Assembly (NCBI GenBank): GCA_048882505.1
Contig: JBHLRO010000009.1
Span: 91,894 to 123,893 of the forward strand
DNA from: Candidatus Thorarchaeota archaeon
Lineage (GTDB): Archaea; Asgardarchaeota; Heimdallarchaeia; Hodarchaeales; Hodarchaeaceae
Length of the DNA stretch: 32,000 bases
Reading direction: 5' to 3'
The notes under the pieces are model-generated. The model did no database searches. It saw only the letters and a program-made list of their open reading frames with translations, and was not told the origin of the DNA. This document shows positions 8,811 to 20,515 of the stretch, one piece after another (the first letter of the stretch is position 1; each line of letters opens with the position of its first letter). The position numbers were made by a program, and so were the translations under genes.

Positions 8811-9665
8811 ATGGATATATGCCTAATTGCGGTCCCATATCACCTGGGCCAAGAAAAACAGGGAATGGGATTGGGTCCACTGAAATATCTAGAAGCGGGT
8901 ATTGAACAAGAGCTTTCAACGAATGTGCGTAAAACCTCTGTCGAAATTGTTCACATTTCAGAGCTTGGAGGAGATGAAAAAAGCCGTATTATTCAAGTTA
9001 ACCAGGATCTACGTAGAAGAGTTGCCCGTGCAAGGAGCGAAAATCGGTTCCCATTAATTTTAGGTGGAAACTGTAATACATGTTTTGGAACCTTGGCGGG
9101 TCTCAACAATCAGGATGTGGGTATAGTGTATTTAGATGCCCATGGAGATTACAACACTCCAGAAACTACCTTGACTGGATTTTTCGATGGAATGCCATTG
9201 GCAGTCGCTACTGGTCAATGTCATAGAGATCTTTGGGATCAAATTGCAGATATGGACCCAATCGCAGAATCACAAACCGTTCATTTGGGGGGACGTGACT
9301 TCGATGCTCCAGAAAAAAAGCTCTTGGATACTTCAGCTGTCATGGTTGTAAATACCGCAGACATAAAGGATAAAGGGATTGAAAACGCGTTACTACCTGT
9401 TTTAAAAAAACTGCAAGAAAGAGTTTCAGAGATATACTTGCACATTGACATTGATGTCATTGATCCAACAGAAGTTCCAGGAGTCGATTACCGAACTCCA
9501 AATGGCCTTTCGAGCAATGATGTTCACCAAATTATCCAAATTCTGAACAATCGCTTTTCGATAAGTGCAGCAGCGCTAACTGCCTATAATCCGGAAAAAG
9601 ATATCGGAGAAGCCACAGTAACCGTTGGAAAACAGTTAATTCATAAAATTGCTAAACTAAGGTAG
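8811..9665 (+). CDS. Arginase/ureohydrolase family protein (non-canonical active site)
   Basis: LILGGNC, YLDAHGDYNTPET, GFFDGMP, YLHIDIDVIDP and PNGL motifs of the binuclear Mn ureohydrolase fold. Confidence 0.9.
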   Translation: MDICLIAVPYHLGQEKQGMGLGPLKYLEAGIEQELSTNVRKTSVEIVHISELGGDEKSRIIQVNQDLRRRVARARSENRFPLILGGNCNTCFGTLAGLNNQDVGIVYLDAHGDYNTPETTLTGFFDGMPLAVATGQCHRDLWDQIADMDPIAESQTVHLGGRDFDAPEKKLLDTSAVMVVNTADIKDKGIENALLPVLKKLQERVSEIYLHIDIDVIDPTEVPGVDYRTPNGLSSNDVHQIIQILNNRFSISAAALTAYNPEKDIGEATVTVGKQLIHKIAKLR

Positions 9666-9677
9666 CTGGTGAAATAA

Positions 9678-10610
9678 TTGGGAACAGAAGAGTTCGGTTC
9701 GAGTTGTGAATATCTTCCATTACGGAAAGTTATGATGTTTCGCCCCGGAGAAGAAGTTAAACAAATAACAGTGGATACTTACAGAGAATTTTCCTTTCGA
9801 GACGTAGTTTACTGGAAACGTTTCCAAGAAGAACACGATTCCTATTGCGATGTCCTCAGAGGGGAAAACGTTGAGGTCATTTATCTAAATGATCACTTGA
9901 CCGATTCTGAATACCAGGTGGTAGATCCCAATCTTGTCTATATGAAAGATACATGTACCATCACAGCCGCAGGATTTATCCAAATGCGGATGGCCAAGCA
10001 AGTCCGGACGCGAGAACCTGAACTGGTGGCACTAGCACTCGAAAGACTTGGGGTACCACTGTTCCACAGAGCTCAGGCTCCAGGATTACTAGAGGGAGGA
10101 GACTTTGTATTCCCTGATCAAGACACGGTCTTCATCGGGTATAATCCTCGCTCTAACGAAGAAGGAGGGATGAAAGTGGGTCGCGATCTTCTGGATAAAC
10201 AGATAATGAATACTGTGGTTCTAGTTCCCCTCCCTTCGTGGAGGGTTCATCTTGATGGCGGGCTTATGTTTGTTAATGAAAATTTAATTCTCGTTTATCC
10301 TCCAGCAGTGCAAACGTTTCCAGCTCGTGTTATGCGTAAGAACGAGCCCCCGTTCCTGATCCCTTTAACGGATTTTATTAAAGAAGAATATAATCCTGAC
10401 AAAATTATTGTCTCAGACAATGAGGTTTACGGTTTCGGGGCAAACGTAGTATGTCTTAACAGCAGGAAATGTGTTATCTATGAGTGGAATGAAAGAATAA
10501 TCTTAGAGATGGGGGAAAGAGGGGTAGAGGCTCTGACAATCCCTGGTAGTGAACTGGCCCGAGGCGGAGGAGGGCCCCATTGTATGACGCTCCCCCTTCT
10601 CCGCAAATAA
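9678..10610 (+). CDS. Arginine deiminase / dimethylargininase (amidinotransferase, pentein) family protein
   Basis: YMKD (F-x-R-D equivalent), LEGGD, HLD and C-terminal ELARGGGGPHCMTLPL with the catalytic Cys. At 310 aa it is shorter than classical ArcA. Confidence 0.88.
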   Translation: MGTEEFGSSCEYLPLRKVMMFRPGEEVKQITVDTYREFSFRDVVYWKRFQEEHDSYCDVLRGENVEVIYLNDHLTDSEYQVVDPNLVYMKDTCTITAAGFIQMRMAKQVRTREPELVALALERLGVPLFHRAQAPGLLEGGDFVFPDQDTVFIGYNPRSNEEGGMKVGRDLLDKQIMNTVVLVPLPSWRVHLDGGLMFVNENLILVYPPAVQTFPARVMRKNEPPFLIPLTDFIKEEYNPDKIIVSDNEVYGFGANVVCLNSRKCVIYEWNERIILEMGERGVEALTIPGSELARGGGGPHCMTLPLLRK

Positions 10611-10617
10611 CACATTA

Positions 10618-11403
10618 ATGGAACGAACTTTAATGACTGATAAATTAACGGTATGTCTGACATTTGACTTTGACGCTGAAAGCGTTCAAATACGACAGCT
10701 AGAAGAGCCTGCTCGTGTTTCGAAAGGAAAATTCGCCGTTAAGAGAGGTGTACCACGGATTCTTTCTCTTTTAAAGCAACAGCAAATTCATGGAACCTTT
10801 TTTACCTGTGGCTGGGTTGCAGAGAACTACCCGGATCTTACGCGGCGAATTATCGCAGATGGTCATGAGGTTGCAGCTCATGGGTACCTCCATGAATATT
10901 TGGACACGTTACCCATTGAAGAAGAGAGAAACGTCCATGAACGGACAGAAAGGGTTTTGGAATCTATCGGGCAACGGGTTAGAGGTTTCCGAGCTCCCTA
11001 TTGGAAGTTATCCCCCAACACTTTAAGCCTTTTAGCTGAACGAAACTACCTTTATGATTCCAGTCTGTTTGATGATGACCGTCCATATCCCTTTCAACCC
11101 TCGAATTCATCAAAAACTCTGATAGAATTCCCCGTAGAATGGTTTATGGATGATTGGATCTTATTTGAAGAGAAACAATCTTCTCCCGCGCAAGCGTTCG
11201 ATATCTGGAAGTCTCAGATTGACGCTTATGTAGCAATGACCGATATCAAGGACAATCACCGAGTTCTGACTCTTACCTGCCATCCCGCCTGTATCGGACA
11301 TGCGTATCGAATAAGAATTCTAGAAAAAACCATTGAGCATTTGAAGAAATACGACGTTCTTTTCGAAAGAATGGACAAAGTCGCAGAGATTCTAAAGGGG
11401 TAG
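10618..11403 (+). CDS. Carbohydrate-esterase-4 (polysaccharide deacetylase, PuuE/PgdA-like) amidohydrolase; the start may be ATG at 10633
   Basis: TFDFDAES, RGVPRIL, TFF..GW, GHEVAAHGYLHE, GFRAP, YDSS, MDDW and LTCHP motifs. Confidence 0.9.
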   Translation: MERTLMTDKLTVCLTFDFDAESVQIRQLEEPARVSKGKFAVKRGVPRILSLLKQQQIHGTFFTCGWVAENYPDLTRRIIADGHEVAAHGYLHEYLDTLPIEEERNVHERTERVLESIGQRVRGFRAPYWKLSPNTLSLLAERNYLYDSSLFDDDRPYPFQPSNSSKTLIEFPVEWFMDDWILFEEKQSSPAQAFDIWKSQIDAYVAMTDIKDNHRVLTLTCHPACIGHAYRIRILEKTIEHLKKYDVLFERMDKVAEILKG

Positions 11404-11411
11404 GCCCAAGA

Positions 11412-12038
11412 ATGGAATACCCATATGCTAGTGATATCATGGAGCCATCTCACCGCTCTTCTCATCTCATTAAAGCTCAAGAGTGTTTGGTTCTCATTAT
11501 AGATGTCCAGGAACCATTTATGAAAGGTTTAACACCAGAAAATCGTACTAGGTTTTTGAAGAAACACGCTTGGTTAATTCAGCTGTGTAGTGTTCTTGAA
11601 ATCCCGTACATCTTGACCGCGGAGGACATAGCCAAAAATGGCTCAATTCATGACCTCTTAAAAACTCAAGTTCAAAAAGAGACCAAGTCTCTCCCCATCT
11701 TCGATAAATTCATTTACAGCTGTTGGGGACAAACTGAAATCCGTGAGGCAATTAAATCCATAGGACGATCGGTCGTTGTATTAGCTGGTTTGGAAACGGA
11801 CGTTTGCATCATGCAGAGCGCCTTGGATCTACTGGACCATGGTTATAGAGTAGTAGTATTAGTCGATCTTTGCTATTCCAGGAATGAATTTGAACATTCG
11901 ATTGGAATACGGCGAATGGAATCCCATGGCGTGATTTTTGCAACTCTTAAATCATGGCAAGAAGAGATAACTGGAGGGCTGAAAACCAGAATTAATCATC
12001 TGTTGATAGAAAAGGGGCTCACTGAGATTCCCCAATGA
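11412..12038 (+). CDS. Isochorismatase-like cysteine hydrolase
   Basis: LIIDVQE, FDKFIYSC, VVLAGLETDVCIMQSALDL (cis-peptide/Cys motif). Confidence 0.9.
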   Translation: MEYPYASDIMEPSHRSSHLIKAQECLVLIIDVQEPFMKGLTPENRTRFLKKHAWLIQLCSVLEIPYILTAEDIAKNGSIHDLLKTQVQKETKSLPIFDKFIYSCWGQTEIREAIKSIGRSVVVLAGLETDVCIMQSALDLLDHGYRVVVLVDLCYSRNEFEHSIGIRRMESHGVIFATLKSWQEEITGGLKTRINHLLIEKGLTEIPQ

Positions 12039-12129: not shown

Positions 12130-13065
12130 ATGCTCCAAAAGAAAGAAGGCGTAAAAATTGATATTCCAGAGGAATGGGGTGGAGTTATCCCGTTGGAAGT
12201 GTTTATTGACGAGGCCAAGAATCTAGTCACAAAAGCTGAAGAATTCGGAGTTTATTTTAGATTGGTCGGGGGCCTTGCTATTCGTCTCCATGTCCAGCCC
12301 CATGGCCTAGAAACCCTTTACAAGAGCCTGAAACGTTTAGGGGATGAGGCAGGGGCTGAAATAACGGACATCGATGGAGGAATTTCCTATAAACATATGA
12401 AAAAGATGGATAAGTTCATGCAGAAACTAGGTTATGCTAAACGAAAACCCACTTTATCCACAGCCGCTAGCCAACGTCGTATCTATATCCATCCCAAGAA
12501 TTGGTGGTTTGTGGATTGCTTCTATGGTAAAATGAAGTTCAACCATGACATAGATCTTGACCATAAACGTCTTGCATTAGACTCGCCAACCTTACCCCTT
12601 GCCGAGCTACTTTTGGGGAAAACCCAAATTGTCCAAATGAATTACAAAGATATCGCAGATACAATAATGTTGCTCATTCCTCATAAGATCGGCTTTGATG
12701 ACGAGCCTGAAACGATCAACATTGAACATGTGGGAGAAAAATACCTGCGAAAAGGCGCCTACGCTTGGGGTTTTTATCACACAGTTACAACAAATCTGAC
12801 AAACATCAAGAACGTCCTAGATGAATTTAAAGAGCTCTCCGAAGACCAACGAGGAGATGTAGCTGGAAAGATCGATAAGATAAGCGAATACTTTAGGCAG
12901 CTCCCAAAAAATCGCGCCTGGAAGGCACGGGCAAAAATAGGCGCCTCAAAACGGTGGTACCGCCCAGTAGAAACAACTGAAAGTGTGGGTGAATTTAGAA
13001 TCTTTTCTGGAAAACATCTAATTGATAGACCCACAACCCTCGAAAATTCTAGTCAAGATAGTTAA
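12130..13065 (+). CDS. Uncharacterised nucleotidyltransferase-fold protein (paralogue 1)
   Basis: LVGGLAIRLH...TDID, third acidic residue in VDCF, TLPLAELLLGKTQIV and KDIADT. This is the hGG/DxD plus KD-x-x-D pattern of Pol-beta-like NTases. Confidence 0.7.
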   Translation: MLQKKEGVKIDIPEEWGGVIPLEVFIDEAKNLVTKAEEFGVYFRLVGGLAIRLHVQPHGLETLYKSLKRLGDEAGAEITDIDGGISYKHMKKMDKFMQKLGYAKRKPTLSTAASQRRIYIHPKNWWFVDCFYGKMKFNHDIDLDHKRLALDSPTLPLAELLLGKTQIVQMNYKDIADTIMLLIPHKIGFDDEPETINIEHVGEKYLRKGAYAWGFYHTVTTNLTNIKNVLDEFKELSEDQRGDVAGKIDKISEYFRQLPKNRAWKARAKIGASKRWYRPVETTESVGEFRIFSGKHLIDRPTTLENSSQDS

Positions 13066-13928
13066 CGGGTTCGGGCATCAACACGAACAGGTTTCTCCTT
13101 TTTCACCTTAGATAAAAATCCAAGGGATTCATCTTTCTCTTCTAGAGGTTTCAGGAAATCAATGATCTCAAGGATTTTGGTTTTTCCATTTTGAGTTAAT
13201 CCTGCGTGAAGTAAAACCTCGGATAGATTTCTAACCAGTGTTCCTGCAAAATCAAGCTTCCTAGCAGCCACTTTCTCGAAAATATCTTTTCCTATGACAT
13301 ATTGCCCCGGTTGACCTGGATTGATGCCCTCAAATATTGTATCTGTGGATCCCACTTCACATTGATGCGAATTCACAACTCGGGCAATGTCCTGGATATC
13401 TTTCAAGTCAAAATCATCGGGATGAATAGCGTGGGCTTTGAGGGCGATCTGGAAACCTGGTGGGCAGATCAGACTTTCAAAATAATTAGAGGGTAGATCC
13501 TTGATTTTGAAAGTCCAACACAACCGAATTCCATTAACGAAGAGTTCTATTTTTTGAAATTTGGCGTTTTCAACATTGCTTTTTCGACCATGGAAGACAC
13601 TATCGACTTCGGTTTGCGAGAGCTCACGGTCAGGCCGATAAAACTCTCTCCTTTTGGGGTCATACTGATTTTGCATATTATTGAATGTCTTGTATGGTAG
13701 GAACCCCATCTCCTCTAGAAGTCCCTGAACCTCATGATCTACCTTTAAAGGGAGAAGAAATTCCATATCACTCATTTTCCGATAATCCATCCTCCCGCCC
13801 AAGAAGTGGTATATCGCGCCGCCGCCCCAAAGAAAACAGGGAATTGAATGTTCTTTACATTGGTTTAGGAATTCATAGCCAAGTTCCATTAGGGCATCGT
13901 TGTGAGCCTGCGCCGAGGATTTTTGCAT
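13062..13928 (-). CDS. Uncharacterised nucleotidyltransferase-fold protein (paralogue 2, divergent)
   Basis: LWGGGAIY...RKMSDME, IELF and LKAH...KDIQDI. Its motif order matches paralogue 1. Confidence 0.65.
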   Translation of the reverse strand: MQKSSAQAHNDALMELGYEFLNQCKEHSIPCFLWGGGAIYHFLGGRMDYRKMSDMEFLLPLKVDHEVQGLLEEMGFLPYKTFNNMQNQYDPKRREFYRPDRELSQTEVDSVFHGRKSNVENAKFQKIELFVNGIRLCWTFKIKDLPSNYFESLICPPGFQIALKAHAIHPDDFDLKDIQDIARVVNSHQCEVGSTDTIFEGINPGQPGQYVIGKDIFEKVAARKLDFAGTLVRNLSEVLLHAGLTQNGKTKILEIIDFLKPLEEKDESLGFLSKVKKEKPVRVDARTR

Positions 13929-14079
13929 AGTTTGACCTTCAGACTATTATTCGAGTTTTTAAAGAATCATTTATACGTCTTTTTTCCTGTTTCTCATGGT
14001 ATCCAGAAATTTGTTAAAATCCCATCTCTCAAAATAACTGATTCCACGGGTTATAAAACGGGTGTCAAATCCGAAAGTT

Positions 14080-15090
14080 CTAAGCTTCGACCCTCTGCAT
14101 TCGTTTTAGTTCCCCTTTCTCCAGTTCAACAAGGAAACCTTTGAGGATAGCTTCAGTATACTCACTTCCGGGGTTTAAACAATAAGTTCGACCAATCTTG
14201 ACACTGCCAGGGGATTCGTGGATGTGTCCATGGAGTCCCAGAAGTGGCTGGTACTTTTCAATTGCCTTTCTTACAGCTTTACTACCTACGGGGCCGCGAA
14301 CCGGTTCCCCTCCACTATATCCCGCATAGGTAAGATCGGGATTCAATAACGGAGCCTCATCGATTTTACTTTCAAAAGGTGGAGCATGAAAGCAAAAAAC
14401 CGCATTTTCCAGATTTCGGATAAGGGGAACGAGTTCTTCGATCTTGGCCTCAATTTCATCATCATTTGTCTCTCTGTAGGTGTGCCAAGGTGTTGGATTG
14501 GTCCAACCATAGGATATCATTTCATGGTGATCATCCAAATCTACCTTTGCCCCCTCTCCAAAGATAACACGGGGATCTTTATTAAGAATTTCATCAATCG
14601 CAAACTTATCGTCATTTCCTGGACATATGATAATCTGGGTACCATTGGGAACCCGTTTTGATCCATCTTTCATGGTATCGTCAATCATATCTATCCAGAG
14701 TTGAAGGGAACTTGCTTCAACCTTGTCAAATAATTTGTCTAGGGCCCCACCTTTTATCATCTTGCCCTCTTCTGTTACAGAATCAAGCGATGAGAGTTGA
14801 CGATCTTCCTCGGGAGTCAATCGATAAGTATAACAGCCAGCCATTCGTGCACGGAATTCGAAGTCCTTAATGTCTTTTTCAGTTCGCATTATTACTTCTT
14901 GTTCCGCCACTCCATAGATAGAACCCTTCCATGTCCCATCGGATTGTTCTATTATTGGGACTATCCTTTTTCCTGTTATATCGCCACCCATGATTAGAGT
15001 GTCTACCTTCAAATACTTAGCCGAGTTAAGAAATTTCCTCCATACGGCTTCGGATCCATGTATATCAGTGCAATAGAAGAATCTGACCAA
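14080..15090 (-). CDS. Calcineurin-like metallophosphoesterase (Icc-related, uncharacterised subfamily)
   Basis: TDIHGS, GGDITGK, PGNDD, HAPP, GSKAV, LHGHIHES and NPGSEY motifs. TTG start with GGGTGA upstream. Confidence 0.93.
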   Translation of the reverse strand: MVRFFYCTDIHGSEAVWRKFLNSAKYLKVDTLIMGGDITGKRIVPIIEQSDGTWKGSIYGVAEQEVIMRTEKDIKDFEFRARMAGCYTYRLTPEEDRQLSSLDSVTEEGKMIKGGALDKLFDKVEASSLQLWIDMIDDTMKDGSKRVPNGTQIIICPGNDDKFAIDEILNKDPRVIFGEGAKVDLDDHHEMISYGWTNPTPWHTYRETNDDEIEAKIEELVPLIRNLENAVFCFHAPPFESKIDEAPLLNPDLTYAGYSGGEPVRGPVGSKAVRKAIEKYQPLLGLHGHIHESPGSVKIGRTYCLNPGSEYTEAILKGFLVELEKGELKRMQRVEA

Positions 15091-15531
15091 GCTAATTTCA
15101 CCCTATATTGCTATTTCTTCGCTTTTTTTAAAATAACTTAGCATATATCAATCGGCGTTCTATTTACCACAAATCCATAAATTGAATTATTTATTTTTCG
15201 AAAGATTCCCAGATTTCTATAACAGATTACTGAATTGGAGGTAAAAAGCGTTAAGAATCTTGATTTAGGAGGAAGTATGGTTTTCGCTTGGTTTTAATTA
15301 ATGTATATGAAGAACAGTGTAAAGTATTACTGAGGATCTTAAGTTAGATTTCCTAGTTAAGGAGTAATGCACGATGCTCTACCCCCTGTAAATTAAAAAA
15401 ACGGCCTATCGGTTCTGAAACCTTACGTTTCGCAGCAACGGAGGAGTTTCTAATTCAAATATAAATAGAGATTTCGGTCGAAAACCTTTTAATATTTCTA
15501 TATTATACAATTTTTATACCATTACTTTAGG

Positions 15532-15549
15532 AATAGAGATGCCTCTATT
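15532..15549. promoter_or_regulatory. Palindrome AATAGAG-ATGC-CTCTATT, a possible operator upstream of the permease promoter
   Basis: Perfect 7-bp arms. The AATAGAGAT half-site also occurs at 15464-15472. Confidence 0.35.
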
Positions 15550-15585
15550 TTACACGGTGGCATTATGGGAAGGAGTGCAGTCCAA

Positions 15586-15600
15586 CGAAAAATATATAAA
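15586..15600 (+). promoter_or_regulatory. Archaeal promoter (BRE CGAAAAA plus TATA box TATATAAA) for the APC permease
   Basis: Near-consensus BRE-TATA. It predicts a TSS at about 15619-15622 and a ~165-nt leader. Confidence 0.65.
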
Positions 15601-15626
15601 ACCTCCAGTATGAAACCAATGGCTGT

Positions 15627-15779
15627 ACAGCTGTCGATTTGTATTCTACAATTTATCGTACAAGTCGGCCTGTGTTAGGTAATCTATTCGAAAATCACCA
15701 ATGATGGGCAATCTATCCCTGTAAATACTTAGACATATAGGACAACTCCCCTAGCGATCATTGGTTGATTCGAAGGTGA
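15627..15779 (+). ncRNA. Candidate structured 5' leader (riboswitch/attenuator-like) of the APC permease
   Basis: Hairpin 15627-15673 (4+11 bp with two G-U pairs). A multibranch element is closed by 15687-15705 pairing with 15757-15774 and ends at the GGTGA RBS (15775-15779). Pairings were found by eye. Confidence 0.45.
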
Positions 15780-15786
15780 AATAAAC

Positions 15787-17541
15787 GTGTCTGAATCAAA
15801 AACCTACGTCCGAGACGCAACAGGTCTCGTACGAGAAATCGGGGTAGTCACCGCAACTATTTTCATTCTTTCGAATGTTATAGGTGGCGGATGGCAGAAA
15901 CGAGTCTTTCAAACTACCGGATGGGCTCCGCTACACCCCAGTAAAATTCTCTTGGTAGATCCACTTGTGGTCGCCTTCCTCCTGACAGGGATTGCCGCGA
16001 TAGCAACCGTTTTCGTATTTGCCGTCATGGCAACCGCGATGCCACGAGCAGGTGGCGGATACGTCTACATTTCCCGTACGATCAGCCCAGGGGTCGGCTT
16101 TGTTTCCGCCTGGGCTGAATTTCTAGGGATCGCGATTAGTTATGGTTTAATCGCAGTAGCCGTGGTTGAGTTCGCAGTACTATTCCTACCTGTGGCGGGG
16201 TATGATGTCGGATTCCTTGGATCTTCGCTCATGTTAACCGTCCTGGGAATAGTCTTTGTATTCCTGTTTGCAGGTCTTGCTTTCTTCGGGGCCTCCATGA
16301 CAGGCAAGCTATTGCATCTGATGTTCTGGATTCCTGCAGTAATTACCGTAGCCATCTATGGCTCACTACTTCTAGGTGTTCTTAACCCAGCTGCAATGGA
16401 GACTGGTATCCAAAGTATCACAGGTTCGTCGGCCGACGCTTGGATTGCAGATGCCGTCGCGTCGGGAATCGATTCACAAGCAGCTCCGGACTATTTTTCA
16501 GCAGTGAACACAGCGATTTTAGGAGCCTATTGGTCATGGATTGGATATGCTGCTATCTCGTTCGCCGCAGGCGAAGTTAAAGAGGCAAATAGGTCTCTGC
16601 CTATCTCTCATCTCGCTGCCGGGTTCATTATCCTCGGCGTCTATATGTCGATTAGCACTTTGCTTTCTATGGCAGCCTCTGTCGGAACACATTCAAGTGG
16701 TTGGACGTTCTTCCAAGCTTTGGGTTTCAACAACTACGGTACAACTACCTCTGACCCCGCTAATACTGGGTATGGATGGATGCCGTTTGTAGCTGTAATG
16801 GCAGCGGATGGCCTTGGATTTGGGTTCTTGGCTATTTTCTTTGCTGTCGCTGCTGTCTTGTGGCTAGCCAACGATCTTCCTCCATTCGTAACAACTTCTT
16901 CCAGAATTCTCTTTGCCATGTCCTTCGACCGAGCTCTCCCTGAAGCCTTCGCTAAGGTAGACGAACGCTGGCACTCTCCTACCAACGCCATATTGGTGAC
17001 CGCCATTATTGCAATCCTTGGGTGCTTTGCTGAAGCCGGTACCTTCACAGTGGGCGGTGTAATACACATCCCTGTTCTCGCTGAAGCTCTAGGCAGTGGA
17101 ATTACTGCAACCGATCTTCTCGACGGTATATTCTTCACTATGGCCTGTATTGCTGCCATTCTTCTCCCAAGACGGTTAAAGGATGTCTATGAGAGAACTG
17201 CATGGCGTCCGAAGATTGCTGGTATGGAAGGCGTCGTTTTAATAGGTATTATCGCGCTAGTTGCGAATATCTATCTGGATCTCGTTATCCTTGGAGAATT
17301 TGGCATTTTAACACCCATGGCTGGTCTAGAAGCTATTCCATTGCTTGGAGCTATGCCCATTGTGCCTGATCCCAATGCTTTGATACCTAGCGGCGATATT
17401 ATAGCTTCGCTGAATTGGGGTTTCTACACCATCTTGGTACTCGTTATAATAGGGGCCATTCTGTACTTCTATTATCGCTCGTACTATTCGAGAAAAGGTG
17501 TGGACTTCACAACCATCTACGCTTCGATCCCTCCAGAGTAG
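15787..17541 (+). CDS. APC-family amino acid/polyamine permease
   Basis: YVRDATGLVRE N-terminus, AMPRAGGGYVYISR, AGEVK, SRILFAMSFDRALP...FAKVDERWHSP, about 12-14 TM helices, C-terminal YASIPPE. GTG start with AGGTGA RBS. Confidence 0.95.
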   Translation: MSESKTYVRDATGLVREIGVVTATIFILSNVIGGGWQKRVFQTTGWAPLHPSKILLVDPLVVAFLLTGIAAIATVFVFAVMATAMPRAGGGYVYISRTISPGVGFVSAWAEFLGIAISYGLIAVAVVEFAVLFLPVAGYDVGFLGSSLMLTVLGIVFVFLFAGLAFFGASMTGKLLHLMFWIPAVITVAIYGSLLLGVLNPAAMETGIQSITGSSADAWIADAVASGIDSQAAPDYFSAVNTAILGAYWSWIGYAAISFAAGEVKEANRSLPISHLAAGFIILGVYMSISTLLSMAASVGTHSSGWTFFQALGFNNYGTTTSDPANTGYGWMPFVAVMAADGLGFGFLAIFFAVAAVLWLANDLPPFVTTSSRILFAMSFDRALPEAFAKVDERWHSPTNAILVTAIIAILGCFAEAGTFTVGGVIHIPVLAEALGSGITATDLLDGIFFTMACIAAILLPRRLKDVYERTAWRPKIAGMEGVVLIGIIALVANIYLDLVILGEFGILTPMAGLEAIPLLGAMPIVPDPNALIPSGDIIASLNWGFYTILVLVIIGAILYFYYRSYYSRKGVDFTTIYASIPPE

Positions 17542-17566
17542 CCAAATCTACCGTCCCTCCCCCCCA

Positions 17567-17585
17567 TTTTTTTTTTCTTTTTTTT
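17567..17585 (+). terminator. Oligo-T tract (T10-C-T8), probable archaeal terminator after the permease
   Basis: Begins 26 nt after the stop codon; U-rich tracts are typical archaeal terminators. Confidence 0.6.
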
Positions 17586-17652
17586 CCCCAATCGATTCTA
17601 ATTTTTTCGATAGGCTAAAATAACTCCCTACGGTCATAAGTTTTGAGGCCCT

Positions 17653-18276
17653 GTGACAACTCTAACTGAACCAATCGACGAGAATTATCTTCGGATGGTT
17701 GAAGAAGAGCTAATGATCCGAGGTGGAAGATGGATAGCAAGTTTCGATACTGCATTTCGTAAATTTCTTGTTTCTAATGCCCTCAAAAACGTAGATACAG
17801 ATAAAACTCACAATAAGTCCGAATATGCGACAATGGTTTACGGGGGGGTTAGGAGCGGAGGTTTATTACTTTCCAGGGCTTTTGCTTTTATGGCCAGTCC
17901 AACCTATAAAGTTGGATTAGGGGCAATATTTTTGCCTGATCCGACGAGGGCCAAATGGTCGACAATCGTCCAGTATCTTCGTGAGTCTGGTTTCGTAAAA
18001 GATGTGATGGAATTCGAGTGGATGTGGATTCTGTTGTTTGGCCACGGAAAGCTCCCTCCCAAGGCGGCTGATAACCTTCAGCGCCATACCTCTAGGGAGC
18101 TGGGACTCCTTTATGCGGATTTAAAACATAAAACAATTATTAATTCGGACGCATTTATTTCTCGTAGAGGCGCAAAGCTATTTAATCCTGCAAATCTTGA
18201 TAAAAAGCCGTACCGATCAAAATTTACGGCAAAAAGAGCTGAAGAAGTTGACTCCAGAAAAGGATACTCCTCTTAA
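17653..18276 (+). CDS. Hypothetical soluble alpha/beta protein (207 aa)
   Basis: Long ORF with GAGG upstream of GTG and normal composition. No motif confidently recognised. Confidence 0.75.
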   Translation: MTTLTEPIDENYLRMVEEELMIRGGRWIASFDTAFRKFLVSNALKNVDTDKTHNKSEYATMVYGGVRSGGLLLSRAFAFMASPTYKVGLGAIFLPDPTRAKWSTIVQYLRESGFVKDVMEFEWMWILLFGHGKLPPKAADNLQRHTSRELGLLYADLKHKTIINSDAFISRRGAKLFNPANLDKKPYRSKFTAKRAEEVDSRKGYSS

Positions 18277-18763
18277 ACCTAGTGAAGAATTTTCACCGAA
18301 TATTCTTCAAACAAGGGCACTGTGGAATTTTCTCTGGATCTTTCTGACCATCCTTGCCGTGGAAACTTTAGGATTTGTATTAATTCGAGTAAACATCGCC
18401 GCCTGGCAAGGAATTATAGTAATCGATCTTGGAGCGGTTTTTTTCTTGATTCTTGGGGCATTAACCCTGGGATACCTATATTACACAAGATACGTAAAAC
18501 GTGTGATAATTTTCGGTGATAAGAGATTTAGCATAAGTGTAGGTAAAAATCTCTATCAATATGAGTGGAAGAATTTTAGAATGGTTGCATTAGCTATCGC
18601 TAGGGGTACAGCAGGCGTGAAAGGTTTCCTAATTCGCATTTATCAAGGCGACCTTGAGTCAGAGTATGTAGACCTTCCGATTTATAGGTTTTCAAAAAAA
18701 ATCAATGCCTTTGACCTAAGGAGCCAGATTGACGAAAAGATTAGTTCGGTTGGAGGTAAGTAA
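18197..18763 (+). CDS. Hypothetical membrane protein: two TM helices plus a beta-rich (PH-like?) domain; likely start TTG at 18248
   Basis: Two hydrophobic helices followed by VIIFGDKRFSISVG...YEWKNF...FLIRI, a layout seen in bacterial-PH-domain proteins. Confidence 0.7.
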   Translation: MIKSRTDQNLRQKELKKLTPEKDTPLKPSEEFSPNILQTRALWNFLWIFLTILAVETLGFVLIRVNIAAWQGIIVIDLGAVFFLILGALTLGYLYYTRYVKRVIIFGDKRFSISVGKNLYQYEWKNFRMVALAIARGTAGVKGFLIRIYQGDLESEYVDLPIYRFSKKINAFDLRSQIDEKISSVGGK

Positions 18764-18881: not shown

Positions 18882-19709
18882 CTAGCGATTCCTAGAGCGG
18901 GGTTCCCCTGGAAACCGTGGTTTCCCATCATCTTTGATCGATGGATCCTTAACGACCCGACCAACACGTTGCTTAGCATAAAAGCCTTTATTCCCGAGCT
19001 TAGCGAGATTCGTGGTCATCTCCAATACCAAACGGAGGAGGAGAGGAGATTTCGTGTCTTCATCTAGTTTTGCCACAACACGGATCGATGGAGTCGCTAA
19101 AGGATAGAGGGACACCCGAACAAGATGCTTTCTGGCAGAAAAGACGATTTTTAGGATATTGGGGGCCCCCTCAAAAAGCGCCTGAAAGAACTCCAGATCG
19201 TTTACTCGAAGAAGAAATTGAGCATCTAGGTCTTTGTTTCGAAAATCCATCACCTCCATTCTCCCCAGCATATCCATGAGCGATTTTATCCCTTTTTCAT
19301 CGCTTCGGGCCAGGATTTCTAATTGATATCGATGGACAATCTTATCCCTGGGATCTGCTTCTATGAGAACGTAATCCTTGCGCTTACGAACCAAGGCTCC
19401 TAGCTTACTCACGATTAGATGTCGTGGAACCATCGTATAGTGAAGTCTCAGATTTTGAATAGCCAAATCCTGTTTGAATTCAGTTCGGTATGATCTACCA
19501 ATAGTACTGGTCTCATCAAGTATAAATGTGTCAATCCATGCACTTGAACTTTGTTTTATATCCTCAAATGATGAGTCCATGATTTTATTGTTCTTTCTTT
19601 TGCCAAAGACGTATATCATAATCCCCACCATTACCGCGAGGAGGGAGATAACTAGTGTTGGCAAGAAGTAGATAAAATAGGCCCAGACAATATCGATAAT
19701 GGATGCCAT
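18882..19709 (-). CDS. CCDC47/DUF1682 (PAT complex subunit)-like single-pass membrane protein
   Basis: TM helix followed by IYVFGKRKNNKI...F, and LRLHYTMVPRHLIVSKLGALVRKRKDYVLIE. These align by eye with human CCDC47 as recalled (NYIIGKNKNSRL...WF; [30 protein letters not shown]). Confidence 0.6.
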   Translation of the reverse strand: MASIIDIVWAYFIYFLPTLVISLLAVMVGIMIYVFGKRKNNKIMDSSFEDIKQSSSAWIDTFILDETSTIGRSYRTEFKQDLAIQNLRLHYTMVPRHLIVSKLGALVRKRKDYVLIEADPRDKIVHRYQLEILARSDEKGIKSLMDMLGRMEVMDFRNKDLDAQFLLRVNDLEFFQALFEGAPNILKIVFSARKHLVRVSLYPLATPSIRVVAKLDEDTKSPLLLRLVLEMTTNLAKLGNKGFYAKQRVGRVVKDPSIKDDGKPRFPGEPRSRNR

Positions 19710-19837: not shown

Positions 19838-20515
19838 CTATGGCGCATATCCTGCCTCTCGCATGATTTGTATGGATGAGCTAACTCCCAAACGACTTGC
19901 ACCTGCATTGATCATACTGAGAGCATCTTCAAAATGGCGGATACCTCCTGCGGCCTTGACCTTAATTCGGTTACCGACCGTTTCGGCCAGGAGTTTAACA
20001 TCATGAATTGTGGCTCCAGTAGGGGCGAAGCCCGTACTTGTTTTGACATAAGCAGCCTCTGCCTCCGCTACACAGCGTGCTGCTTCTCTTTTTAGAGAAT
20101 CTGTAAGATAAGCTGTCTCGATAATAACCTTAACTGGAATATCTGGGACGCTTTCAACAACTGCAAGGATATCTTGCCTAGCTTTGATCCAATTCTCTTC
20201 CAAAATCAAGCCTAGGTTTGCCACCATGTCAATTTCCGTAGCCCCGTTCTTCACAGCTTCTCGAGCCTCATATGCCTTTTGATTTGGAGGTAAAGCCCCA
20301 AATGGAAAAGAAATACAAGCGGTTACATCAATTCCAGTGTTTTTAAGTTCCTGTGCTGTTAGTTTTACCCACACTGGATTAACCGTCATTGAGGCAAAAT
20401 TCCAGTCTCTTGTTTCCTGTGCTACACGTTTTATGTCTTTCTCACCTGTAGTTGGCCGTAGAACTGAATGATCTATGAACTTCGCAAATTCCTCTTTAGA
20501 GAAACTCATTTTCAA
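19838..20515 (-). CDS. deoC: Deoxyribose-phosphate aldolase
   Basis: IDHSVL, GATEIDMV, VKVIIET, VKTSTGF, VKAAGGIR and RLGVSS motifs. Confidence 0.97.
   Translation of the reverse strand: MKMSFSKEEFAKFIDHSVLRPTTGEKDIKRVAQETRDWNFASMTVNPVWVKLTAQELKNTGIDVTACISFPFGALPPNQKAYEAREAVKNGATEIDMVANLGLILEENWIKARQDILAVVESVPDIPVKVIIETAYLTDSLKREAARCVAEAEAAYVKTSTGFAPTGATIHDVKLLAETVGNRIKVKAAGGIRHFEDALSMINAGASRLGVSSSIQIMREAGYAP

Follow-up and report, generated by a model that had tools for sequence, protein, structure and literature searches.

Why two nucleotidyltransferase (NTase) genes and a metallophosphoesterase gene lie beside the gene for an APC-superfamily permease, and what such enzymes might act on, are the questions raised by a locus in a 32,000-nucleotide stretch of DNA (the window) from a Hodarchaeales-type Asgard archaeon. 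All six open reading frames of the locus are present, and in the window they come after a C-N hydrolase operon. The features are as follows.

12130..13065, + strand: NTase-A, a 311-aa Pol-beta-fold nucleotidyltransferase and the universal NTase partner of the module
13062..13928, - strand: NTase-B, a second, diverged Pol-beta nucleotidyltransferase of 288 aa whose orthologues are confined to loci of Hodarchaeales type
14080..15090, - strand: metallophosphoesterase of 336 aa, with motif III in the variant form GNDD and a large insert following motif II
15091..15786, no strand: divergent intergenic region between phosphoesterase and permease, 696 nt, with presumed promoters and leader
15787..17541, + strand: APC-superfamily permease of 584 aa, a distinct subfamily with signature cytoplasmic termini
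17653..18276, + strand: orf207, a cytosolic alpha/beta domain protein, the soluble half of the accessory protein
18197..18763, + strand: orf188, the membrane half of the accessory protein, made up of two transmembrane helices and a bacterial PH domain

The two NTase genes are convergent, and the tetranucleotide TTAA (13062-13065) provides the stop codons of both. The start of orf188 is uncertain and may be an in-frame TTG at either 18197 or 18248. The permease gene is transcribed divergently from the phosphoesterase gene, as an earlier note had it, with 696 nt between them; in most other lineages this spacer is merely about 120-250 nt. Two blocks of the spacer are kept in the closest relative (L009), one at about 15476-15706 (69% over 234 nt) and one at 15173-15203 (97% over 31 nt). 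Comparison of the 696-nt spacer with Rfam families gave no match.

Recurrence and co-inheritance of the gene set

In 80 genome loci found through the phosphoesterase, an NTase-A homologue lies within 10 kb of that gene in 76 and the permease is present in 66. Only three clear exceptions have full flanks (L013, L068 and L082), and most other gaps are contig ends. The co-occurrence of these three subfamilies across archaea and bacteria, which the earlier note had put forward, is real and very strong. The orf207/orf188 family is found in 70 of 85 clustered sources (84 fetched loci and the window). Carriers of the module include Asgard archaea, Bathyarchaeia, Nitrososphaeria, Chloroflexota, Actinomycetes and one cultured haloarchaeon. 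Because dozens of unrelated genomes share the gene set, the six-gene arrangement is far beyond chance.

Among 251 genomes of the phylum, 89 carry the phosphoesterase, 91 carry NTase-A and 86 carry both, leaving 3 and 5 discordant. Within the genus of the window, the same nine of 16 other genomes carry both genes and the same seven carry neither; in all nine the module genes are single copy and collinear. Pairwise distances are correlated between phosphoesterase and permease (0.94) and in each of the two pairs that involve NTase-A (0.82), and none of 500 permutations reached correlations as high as those observed. The phosphoesterase is the more conserved partner, with 37-39% identity at distant loci where the permease has 24-27%, and a mean pairwise distance of 0.44 compared to 0.52. 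Where a genome has several copies, each permease comes with an enzyme set of its own (seven phosphoesterase and seven NTase matches in G025, for instance), and natural fusions of NTase-A to the phosphoesterase occur (L027 and P0086).

The genes flanking the module vary between lineages, so that it is the permease, and not a pathway, that the enzymes accompany. In the cultured Halobellus limi the neighbours are IclR and alcohol and aldehyde dehydrogenases, and in the cultured Thermomicrobium roseum they are an aminomethyltransferase and nitrilases. The latter organism has the permease and phosphoesterase, with no NTase-A homologue within 7 kb. Permease, NTase-A, phosphoesterase and accessory protein share their inheritance, losses and rearrangements as one module and are in some cases fused, and the six genes of the window form one self-contained functional module around a secondary transporter. 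A literature search found no paper describing it. We regard the module as undescribed so far, its newly recognised parts being the accessory protein, the NTase-A::phosphoesterase fusions and the permease terminal signatures.

Components of the module

Catalytic motifs are complete in both NTases and in the phosphoesterase. NTase-A has nothing above threshold in Pfam. Its AF2 model (pLDDT 85) has a Pol-beta NTase fold, and it matches NTP_transf_5-type clusters in the Atlas with TM 0.76-0.93. The catalytic residues hGG (G47 G48), D80-x-D82 and D129 are invariant or nearly so (44-87 homologues); in 44 homologues 27 residues are invariant, comprising those of the GG/DxD/D motif and about 22 others. 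NTase-B scores 23.5 bits against PF14907, below the cut-off of 31.2, and its G36 G37 and D54-x-E56 are invariant in 11 orthologues. Aligned to the NTase-A profile with hhalign (probability 96%, E 3e-9), NTase-B is by profile comparison a distant paralogue of NTase-A. Both genes are thus NTase-fold genes, as the earlier note had read them. That note would have given up its reading on finding unlinked families or no Pol-beta fold; linkage is conserved and the fold is present. A second NTase is also present in most module loci, and in other lineages it differs from NTase-B and is either 259 or about 365 aa long. The universal partner is NTase-A, and NTase-B is a second NTase specific to Hodarchaeales.

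The phosphoesterase has more than 7000 database matches, with names and Pfam tags that include PF00149, PF12850 and PF14582, and shares 43-49% identity with homologues from Bathyarchaeia, Chloroflexota and Actinomycetes. A sequence search for solved relatives returned none. Seventeen sequences show no variation in the metal motifs D9-x-H11, G36-D37, G158-N159-D160-D161, H235 and G288-H289-x-H291, nor in the family motifs GGDxTGK, NPTPW..RE and NPGSEY that the earlier note had picked out. Motif III has the form GNDD where GNHD/E is canonical.

The permease matches PF13520 (79 bits) and PF00324 (78 bits), and a PDB sequence search with it found no relative. The motif ATGLVRE occupies residues 11-17 and IPPE the last four. 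Invariant in 29 sequences are R9, T12 G13 L14, R16 E17, and the C-terminal G571 and P582 P583. In 112 full-length representatives of the family at 50% identity, the N-terminal motif is kept in 107, down to 26% identity, a C-terminus of the form [ILVM]-P-[PVA]-x in 108, and both in 104. At the sequence level, what defines the subfamily is [S/T]-G-L-V-R-E at the cytoplasmic N-terminus together with I-P-P-E at the very end of the C-terminus. Both enzymes still adjoin the distant motif-bearing permeases L088 and L092. Neither enzyme accompanies the motif-less relatives that were checked (L090 and L094), a negative class of two loci only. The residue preceding G-L-V-R in the 107 motif-bearing representatives is Thr (67) or Ser (40) and nothing else. 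The tail TTIYASIPPE had been proposed as a nucleotidylation acceptor; its terminal IPPE is kept family-wide, but T576 is kept only in close relatives. The N-terminal position of T12, which is always Ser or Thr, is the better candidate acceptor for the family as a whole.

The two last genes had been taken for orphans. They are instead conserved module components that are fused in other lineages, although neither orf207 nor orf188 matches Pfam, NCBIfam or PADLOC. In Bathyarchaeia, fused proteins of about 300 aa have an N-terminal domain homologous to orf207 and a C-terminal half to which orf188 aligns, and combine a cytosolic domain of nuclease-like type with two membrane helices and a bacterial PH domain (pLDDT 91.7 for a modelled homologue). 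Fusions exist in both domain orders. The orf207 fold is restriction-endonuclease-like without conserved catalytic acids, and its conserved residues are E17, W27, G64, G70, S74, P83, Y85, W123 and G151. Its VIA matches are borderline (Z 8.2-8.7) and include the YqgP N-domain, NucS, AF1548 and Can2 nuclease domains. The orf188 fold matches DUF304/bPH families and PH domains.

Possible targets of the enzymes

We tentatively propose that the enzymes are a writer/eraser pair controlling uptake by reversible nucleotidylation of the permease, the reading that we prefer, and one that we hold to be possible and somewhat short of probable. An NTase would use an NTP to place NMP on a hydroxyl of a cytoplasmic element that stays constant. 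This element may be the permease's [S/T]-G-L-V-R-E at the N-terminus or its tail at the C-terminus, or else the accessory protein anchored in the membrane. Hydrolysis of the NMP phosphodiester by the metallophosphoesterase would reset the system, and the accessory protein, with its nuclease-like domain, two transmembrane helices and PH domain, would serve as a sensor or adaptor tethered to the membrane. If sensing were specific for the cargo, this would account for the separate enzyme set of each paralogous permease copy. The NTase-A::phosphoesterase fusions support an enzyme pair. For uptake control we also count the linkage, co-occurrence, co-inheritance, the fusions of orf207 with orf188, constant termini, intact catalytic motifs, the stronger conservation of the phosphoesterase than of the permease, and the lineage-dependent flanks. 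Against it stand the T. roseum locus without a nearby NTase-A and the small motif-less class. A protein target is disfavoured by the nearest solved relatives of NTase-A, which act on small molecules (ANT(2'')-Ia and LnuA) or RNA (MenT1) and resemble it weakly (E about 1e-3). If the termini were the only target, one enzyme pair could serve all copies, yet sets are kept per permease, which fits cargo-specific enzymes at least as well.

Such enzymes would act on the imported small molecule and not on a protein, an explanation that we consider rather unlikely. The NTase would O-nucleotidylate the entering cargo and the phosphoesterase then cleave the phosphodiester, resulting in trapping or two-step phosphorylation; or an imported phosphodiester would be opened by the phosphoesterase as the initial step. 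On this view a transport metabolon would dock at the conserved termini of the permease. In its favour, the solved folds closest to NTase-A are small-molecule O-nucleotidyltransferases; an enzyme pair for each paralogous permease and the tight phosphoesterase-permease co-divergence (r 0.94) are as expected of cargo-specific enzymes, and catabolic genes lie beside the module in H. limi and T. roseum, as does a C-N hydrolase operon in the window. However, the enzymes outconserve the permease, with 27 invariant residues in NTase-A, although the context, and presumably the cargo, varies; archaeal and Chloroflexota loci have no consistent flanking pathway. NTP-costly nucleotidylation followed by hydrolysis would be futile or a very expensive kinase substitute, and the accessory membrane protein and second NTase are left unexplained.

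We think it distinctly improbable that the NTase makes a local nucleotide second messenger that the phosphoesterase degrades and that the accessory protein or permease reads to gate transport. Nucleotide signalling commonly pairs a synthase with a phosphodiesterase, so the layout is a standard one, and CD-NTases are among the weak fold matches of NTase-A, but these matches are poor (TM 0.2-0.25). At a borderline Z, the domain of orf207 is similar to nuclease domains from cyclic-oligoadenylate effectors such as Can2 and Card1; however, the Can2 likeness is not to the nucleotide-sensing CARF domain, and orf207 has no conserved catalytic or ligand motif. A diffusible signal would also cause cross-talk between paralogous modules in one genome, and PADLOC gave no defence-type matches. 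That the genes are neighbours by chance, or that a mobile cassette for defence or of the toxin-antitoxin type, with an AbiEii/MenT-like NTase toxin, happens to adjoin a permease, is very improbable and conflicts with the comparative data as they stand: among solved folds MenT1 matches NTase-A best, and AbiEii-type clusters are among its Atlas neighbours, but the permease linkage spans domains of life with fusions and co-divergence, an antitoxin-like partner is absent, PADLOC found nothing beyond a weak partial match on the phosphoesterase, and the module is single copy and collinear in all nine module-bearing genus relatives.

Comparison with known systems

Characterised APC transporters (the ApcT, AdiC, ethanolamine, FrlA and BcaP families) have the same APC/LeuT fold (Pfam) as the module permease. 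Unlike them, it falls far below the cut-off of every NCBIfam equivalog, has unique N- and C-terminal signatures and belongs to a small, distinct subfamily (1409 representatives at E<=1e-3, only 32 at E<=1e-30). The phosphoesterase has complete metal ligands, as do YfcE/MJ0936-type (Metallophos_2) and COG2129 'Icc-related' phosphodiesterases, and like YfcE/MJ0936, where motif III is GNCD, it lacks the canonical His. It differs from the YfcE/Icc type in an insert of roughly 115 residues between motifs II and III and in the family-specific invariant blocks HE..GW.NPTPW..RE and NPGSEY.

The best solved fold matches of NTase-A are MenT1 (8an4/8an5), ANT(2'')-Ia (5kqj, 4wqk), LnuA (4fo1) and JHP933 (4o8s), small Pol-beta NTases that share its GG...DxD...D core but match it weakly (E about 1e-3, TM 0.3-0.5). 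At about 300 aa, NTase-A exceeds them in size; it has a helical C-domain, which is conserved, and the motif K..W..R...G....WY...E, and the antitoxin or antibiotic-resistance context of such comparators is absent around the window NTases. Relatives in other loci reach PF14907 NTP_transf_5 (34.4 bits for the 259-aa protein of L003), whereas both window NTases are below its cut-off. The two transmembrane helices and PH domain of orf188 recall DUF304/bPH_2 and YdbS/YdbT-type membrane-anchored proteins, and the top VIA match of the orf207 domain is the non-catalytic cytosolic N-domain of the rhomboid YqgP (Z 8.7, a borderline value). In contrast to the bPH and YqgP proteins, orf207 and orf188 have no Pfam match, and no instance of their domain combination, whether divided between two proteins or fused in one order or the other, was found outside this module.

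GlnD and GlnE carry out reversible uridylylation and adenylylation in nitrogen control. In AmtB-GlnK-GlnD and GlnE/glutamine synthetase, genetic ties join a transporter to an NTase writer of the Pol-beta superfamily and to an eraser that is a metal-dependent hydrolase, a parallel that we infer for the module. GlnD combines NTase and hydrolase in one chain, like the L027 and P0086 fusions, and the two NTase domains of GlnE parallel the two NTases. However, the module has no PII protein or HD domain, its candidate eraser is a calcineurin-type metallophosphoesterase, its transporter is an APC permease and not Amt, and homology does not extend beyond the NTase superfamily. The Legionella pair DrrA(SidM)/SidD are secreted effectors acting on host Rab1. 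The module differs from them as a chromosomal, cross-domain, housekeeping-type pair with an MPE fold in place of the PPM fold of SidD, and the likeness is one of chemistry, with no claim of homology. In that pair the AMPylase has an NTase fold, and its opponent, a metal-dependent enzyme with a phosphatase fold, breaks the phosphodiester between AMP and protein, which is a precedent for the chemistry proposed here.

Gene layout of the module

All six open reading frames that the earlier note placed between positions 12130 and 18763 are present, and its observation of the locus is confirmed as a whole. Judged by the database names of close homologues, the window comes from an Asgard archaeon of Heimdall/Hodarchaeales type.

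Features of the module
12130-13065, forward strand: NTase-A, a nucleotidyltransferase (NTase) with Pol-beta motifs and fold
13062-13928, reverse strand: NTase-B, with its own GG...DxE motif
14080-15090, reverse strand: metallophosphoesterase (MPE) with every metal ligand present
15091-15786: divergent spacer between the MPE and permease genes, 696 nt
15787-17541, forward strand: APC permease with a Pfam match
17653-18276, forward strand: orf207
18197-18763, forward strand: orf188

The NTase-A and NTase-B genes are convergent and have the nucleotides TTAA in common as stop codons. The spacer is unusually long compared with the approximately 120-250 nt found in most other lineages. Two blocks within it are also conserved in L009, the closest relative, one upstream of the permease (approximately 15476-15706; 69% over 234 nt) and one upstream of the phosphoesterase (15173-15203; 97% over 31 nt). 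No Rfam family was found on the whole window, nor in the spacer under a permissive search. Directly 3' of the permease stop codon, within 17542-17652, a C-run is followed by long T-runs (approximately 17560-17590) that look like an archaeal terminator, so orf207 and orf188 may have a transcript to themselves or rely on read-through.

Same-strand genes upstream (8811-12038, forward strand) include a NodB-type deacetylase (10618-11403) and an isochorismatase-family hydrolase (11412-12038), the latter adjoining NTase-A only in the window and in L009. The C-N hydrolase operon that precedes the module in the window was rejected as a member of the unit because this adjacency is likewise kept only in L009. 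On the other side, a gene of 275 amino acids follows orf188 (18882-19709, reverse strand), and deoC lies at 19838-20515 (reverse strand). Homologues of the 275-residue protein (42-60% identity) occupy the same position in eight Hodarchaeales-type loci and were not found outside loci of this type; the gene is a lineage-specific neighbour, outside the cross-domain module.

Linkage and distribution

The linkage of permease, MPE and NTase that the earlier note had put forward holds across a wide range of genomes. The first three look-ups, in a Heimdall chromosome, a JGI contig and an Anaerolineae contig, returned the same neighbours. Taking one genome per species, we collected 80 MPE loci from Asgard lineages, Bathyarchaeia, Nitrososphaeria, Anaerolineae, Actinomycetes and Acidiferrales. 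By tBLASTn and ORF clustering, NTase-A lies no more than 10 kb from the MPE in 76 of these loci and the permease is present in 66. About nine of the 14 permease-less loci are on contigs that break off next to the genes, and the only clear exceptions with full flanks are L013, which carries a paralogous MPE, L068 and L082. Of 251 genomes sampled across the phylum, 89 contain the MPE, 91 contain NTase-A and 86 contain the two together; the eight discordant genomes all have completeness values of 72-88%. Within the genus of the window, nine genomes carry both genes and seven lack both, so the two genes are present and absent in the same genomes. Pairwise distances are strongly correlated between MPE and permease (r 0.94) and in each pair involving NTase-A (0.82), values to which shared species history contributes.

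The module is single copy in the window's genome and is present in up to seven copies in other Asgard genomes, each copy with its own enzymes. In some Asgard genomes (G025, G041, G053 and G048) the phosphoesterase and NTase-A each occur in 4-7 copies, several of which sit close together on a single contig, for example three on G025:C57. The module is amplified like a transporter family.

Flanking genes vary between lineages and suggest no common pathway. They include ABC transporters, a Trp/Tyr-type tRNA synthetase, an MBL hydrolase, TauE, PGM, a GlmU-like protein, DUF1512, peptidase M24 and Usp. A constant metabolic neighbour was sought among them and rejected, as these flanks reflect lineage-specific synteny outside the module.

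Parts of the module are also present in two cultured species. A plasmid of Halobellus limi (NZ_CP031312, 386259-389795) carries the phosphoesterase, the permease and a 250-residue NTase-A homologue annotated as hypothetical, beside genes for IclR, an iron alcohol dehydrogenase and an aldehyde dehydrogenase. On the megaplasmid of Thermomicrobium roseum (NC_011961, 780240-784642), permease and phosphoesterase are followed by a double nitrilase of 602 amino acids, and the module genes lie beside nitrilases and an aminomethyltransferase. The C-terminus of this permease has degenerated to EVPAE and no NTase-A homologue was found within 7 kb of the pair, so that the locus is possibly a natural variant without the writer.

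Features of the component proteins

NTase-A carries the hG[GS] and [DE]x[DE] motifs of Pol-beta nucleotidyltransferases. Among 44 sequences G47, D80 and D82 are invariant and G48 is nearly so, and both aspartates are retained in 87 of 87 homologues. The third carboxylate, D129, is also invariant and sits in the modelled strand E127-132. Some 22 further residues are invariant among 44-87 homologues, including a C-terminal block (K260..W264..R267..G271..W276 Y277..E281). The top Foldseek matches of the AF2 model (pLDDT 85) are all Pol-beta enzymes, namely MenT1, ANT(2'')-Ia, LnuA, TUT7 and CCA-adding enzymes; the best solved matches are MenT1, ANT(2'')-Ia, LnuA and JHP933, each of them weak. In the Atlas of structural-neighbour clusters NTase-A groups with NTP_transf_5/DUF2204/AbiEii-type proteins (TM 0.76-0.93 to NTP_transf_5-type clusters). 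By motif, third carboxylate and fold it is a member of the Pol-beta superfamily. Structural neighbours in the same resource include NTase-A-like domains fused to Fic domains (Actinomycetota, approximately 677 amino acids) and to phosphoribosyltransferase domains (Microcaldota, approximately 576 amino acids).

NTase-B and NTase-A are distant paralogues (hhalign probability 96%), and the NTase fold proposed for both genes stands. Membership of PF14907 (NTP_transf_5) requires the curated gathering cut-off of 31.2 bits; NTase-A scores 12.9 bits (E 0.08), with no Pfam match at threshold, and NTase-B 23.5 bits. Both are therefore related outliers rather than members by the curated rule, which some homologues do pass, such as a 259-residue protein in L003 (34.4 bits). 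A second NTase is the rule across the module: NTase-B in Hodarchaeales, a 259-residue PF14907 protein in Anaerolineae, and in Bathyarchaeia a class of approximately 365 amino acids that has no Pfam or NCBIfam match. Catalytic motifs are kept in all these classes.

The phosphoesterase shows the DxH, GD, GN, H and GHxH motifs, with D9, H11, D37, N159, H235, H289 and H291 invariant in 17 sequences, and by its metal ligands belongs to the calcineurin-like metallophosphoesterase superfamily. It lacks the general-acid His of the canonical GNH[DE], motif III being an invariant G158-N159-D160-D161. The protein scores 21.4 bits against the PF00149 cut-off of 21.5, carries large family-specific invariant blocks, and found no true match in a PDB sequence search. 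Thousands of database relatives exist for the MPE alone. Natural NTase-A::MPE fusions occur in L027 and P0086. A paralogous phosphoesterase, 53-56% identical, is present in a Hermodarchaeota-labelled genome (L013:10001-11023; G136:C19:27293-28312). The L013 flanks, which were examined, hold neither permease nor NTase nor accessory protein, and this sister subfamily may work alone.

By its sequence the permease qualifies as a bona fide APC protein, scoring 79.3 bits with PF13520 (AA_permease_2; cut-off 27) and 78.1 bits with PF00324 (AA_permease; cut-off 24.6). It falls in no characterised APC subfamily (ethanolamine, FrlA, BcaP, AdiC and others) by NCBIfam equivalog cut-offs; the best model, TIGR00909, gives 75.5 bits against 556.8, and the remaining ones are far under their cut-offs. 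A PDB sequence search likewise found no true match. With 1409 representatives at E<=1e-3, the permeases make up a small, distinct family.

Both ends of the permease are highly conserved. Across 112 full-length representatives, with identities as low as 26%, the N-terminal motif is kept in 107, where the residue before G-L-V-R is solely Thr (67) or Ser (40). A C-terminal [ILVM]-P-[PVA]-x end, most commonly IPPE, is present in 108, and 104 have both motifs. Of the tail proposed earlier as a modification target, the terminal IPPE-type end is thus widely kept; T576 is conserved only among close relatives. Two distant motif-bearing permeases have beside them an NTase-A homologue and an MPE, the latter at 37-39% identity, and neither MPE nor NTase-A accompanies the two motif-less relatives examined.

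The two genes first described as orphans proved to be conserved components, with the orf207/orf188 family in 70 of 85 clustered sources (84 fetched loci and the window). They form one protein of approximately 300 amino acids in Bathyarchaeia and are fused in the opposite order in another clade. The possibility of a single frameshifted gene was rejected, since the two are separate, and adjacent or slightly overlapping, in all Hodarchaeales loci. The confident model of a fused homologue (pLDDT 91.7) has an N-terminal alpha/beta domain, two transmembrane helices (166-189 and 198-220), and then a predicted bacterial PH (bPH) domain of seven strands and a helix (282-295). The orf188 part resembles DUF304, bPH_2, bPH_4 and bPH_6 clusters and PH domains, and in the model shows the two N-terminal transmembrane helices, PH-fold beta-sandwich and C-terminal helix expected of this class. 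The orf207 domain has a fold likeness to restriction-endonuclease-like folds (YqgP N-domain, NucS, AF1548, Can2) at a borderline Z of 8.2-8.7, without the PD-(D/E)xK catalytic signature; its conserved residues are E17, W27, G64, G70, S74, P83, Y85, W123 and G151. Neither protein, nor their fused homologues, has a Pfam or NCBIfam match. A complex prediction for the permease with orf188 residues 36-188, run without controls, scored 0.00 and counts neither for nor against an interaction.

Candidate mechanisms and comparison with known systems

The genes form one co-inherited unit, in which enzymes with intact catalytic motifs accompany a permease with invariant cytoplasmic end-pieces. Our preferred reading, held tentatively, is reversible control of the permease by nucleotidylation. 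An NTase would place NMP on an unvarying cytoplasmic element, and the MPE would then take it off. The element could be the accessory protein or the termini of the permease, whose strongest candidate acceptor is position 12, occupied only by Ser or Thr. We favour this reading because sequence conservation is higher in the enzymes than in the permease while the context is variable, because within the permease it peaks at the termini, which go along with the presence of the enzymes, and because the NTase-hydrolase fusions mirror GlnD. In addition, an NTase paired with a phosphodiesterase makes poor metabolic sense and good sense as a writer and eraser. Of the interpretation in the earlier note, linkage and folds are supported and the mechanism is a proposal. 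New relative to it are the accessory protein, the second NTase as a rule, the NTase-A::MPE fusions and the terminal signatures.

Against it stands chiefly the finding that every paralogous permease has an enzyme set to itself and that MPE and permease diverge together. This fits cargo-specific enzymes acting on an imported small molecule, a less likely alternative; a regulatory role would require cargo sensing by the enzymes or the accessory protein. A more speculative and improbable variant is a group-translocation-like device, extending PTS-like logic to APC permeases, in which covalent capture would make uptake by a secondary transporter irreversible. NTases docked on the invariant permease termini would nucleotidylate emerging cargo and the phosphoesterase would cut the adduct on its nucleoside side, with the bPH/nuclease-like protein tethering these enzymes to the membrane. 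A local nucleotide messenger appears equally doubtful, and other, unforeseen roles are conceivable. A chance neighbourhood or defence cassette is effectively excluded. An AbiEii/MenT toxin-antitoxin or other defence system was rejected on the conserved partners, which are permease and phosphoesterase, and on PADLOC. Run on the five non-permease proteins and two homologues, PADLOC returned nothing relevant: neither the NTases nor the orphans had a hit, and the phosphoesterase had no more than a partial PDC-S10 match (E 1e-6).

Should the transporter be what the enzymes modify, the module would represent a new and general post-translational control of nutrient uptake by nucleotidylation; if they act on cargo, a new uptake chemistry. 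Either way, it gives context to several large 'hypothetical' families in the uncultured archaea that dominate anoxic sediments. A direct test is feasible in Halobellus limi CGMCC 1.10331, a cultured and tractable haloarchaeon with the permease/NTase-A/phosphoesterase trio.

In fold, the closest known proteins are the small NTases MenT1, ANT(2'')-Ia and LnuA and, for the other parts, YfcE/MJ0936-like phosphodiesterases, APC permeases and bPH proteins. AmtB-GlnK-GlnD/GlnE and DrrA/SidD are the closest in logic, each having only the NTase superfamily in common with the module. No PII or HD family was found in the six proteins or their conserved neighbours, and the resemblance to AmtB-GlnK-GlnD is therefore one of functional logic only. 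Full-text literature searches on MPE/NTase/permease combinations, PF14907 and deAMPylase/MPE found no description of the module, and its parts were not found together in any described system. It is an undescribed, transporter-centred module, widely distributed in Asgard archaea, Bathyarchaeia, Nitrososphaeria, Chloroflexota, Actinomycetes and haloarchaea.
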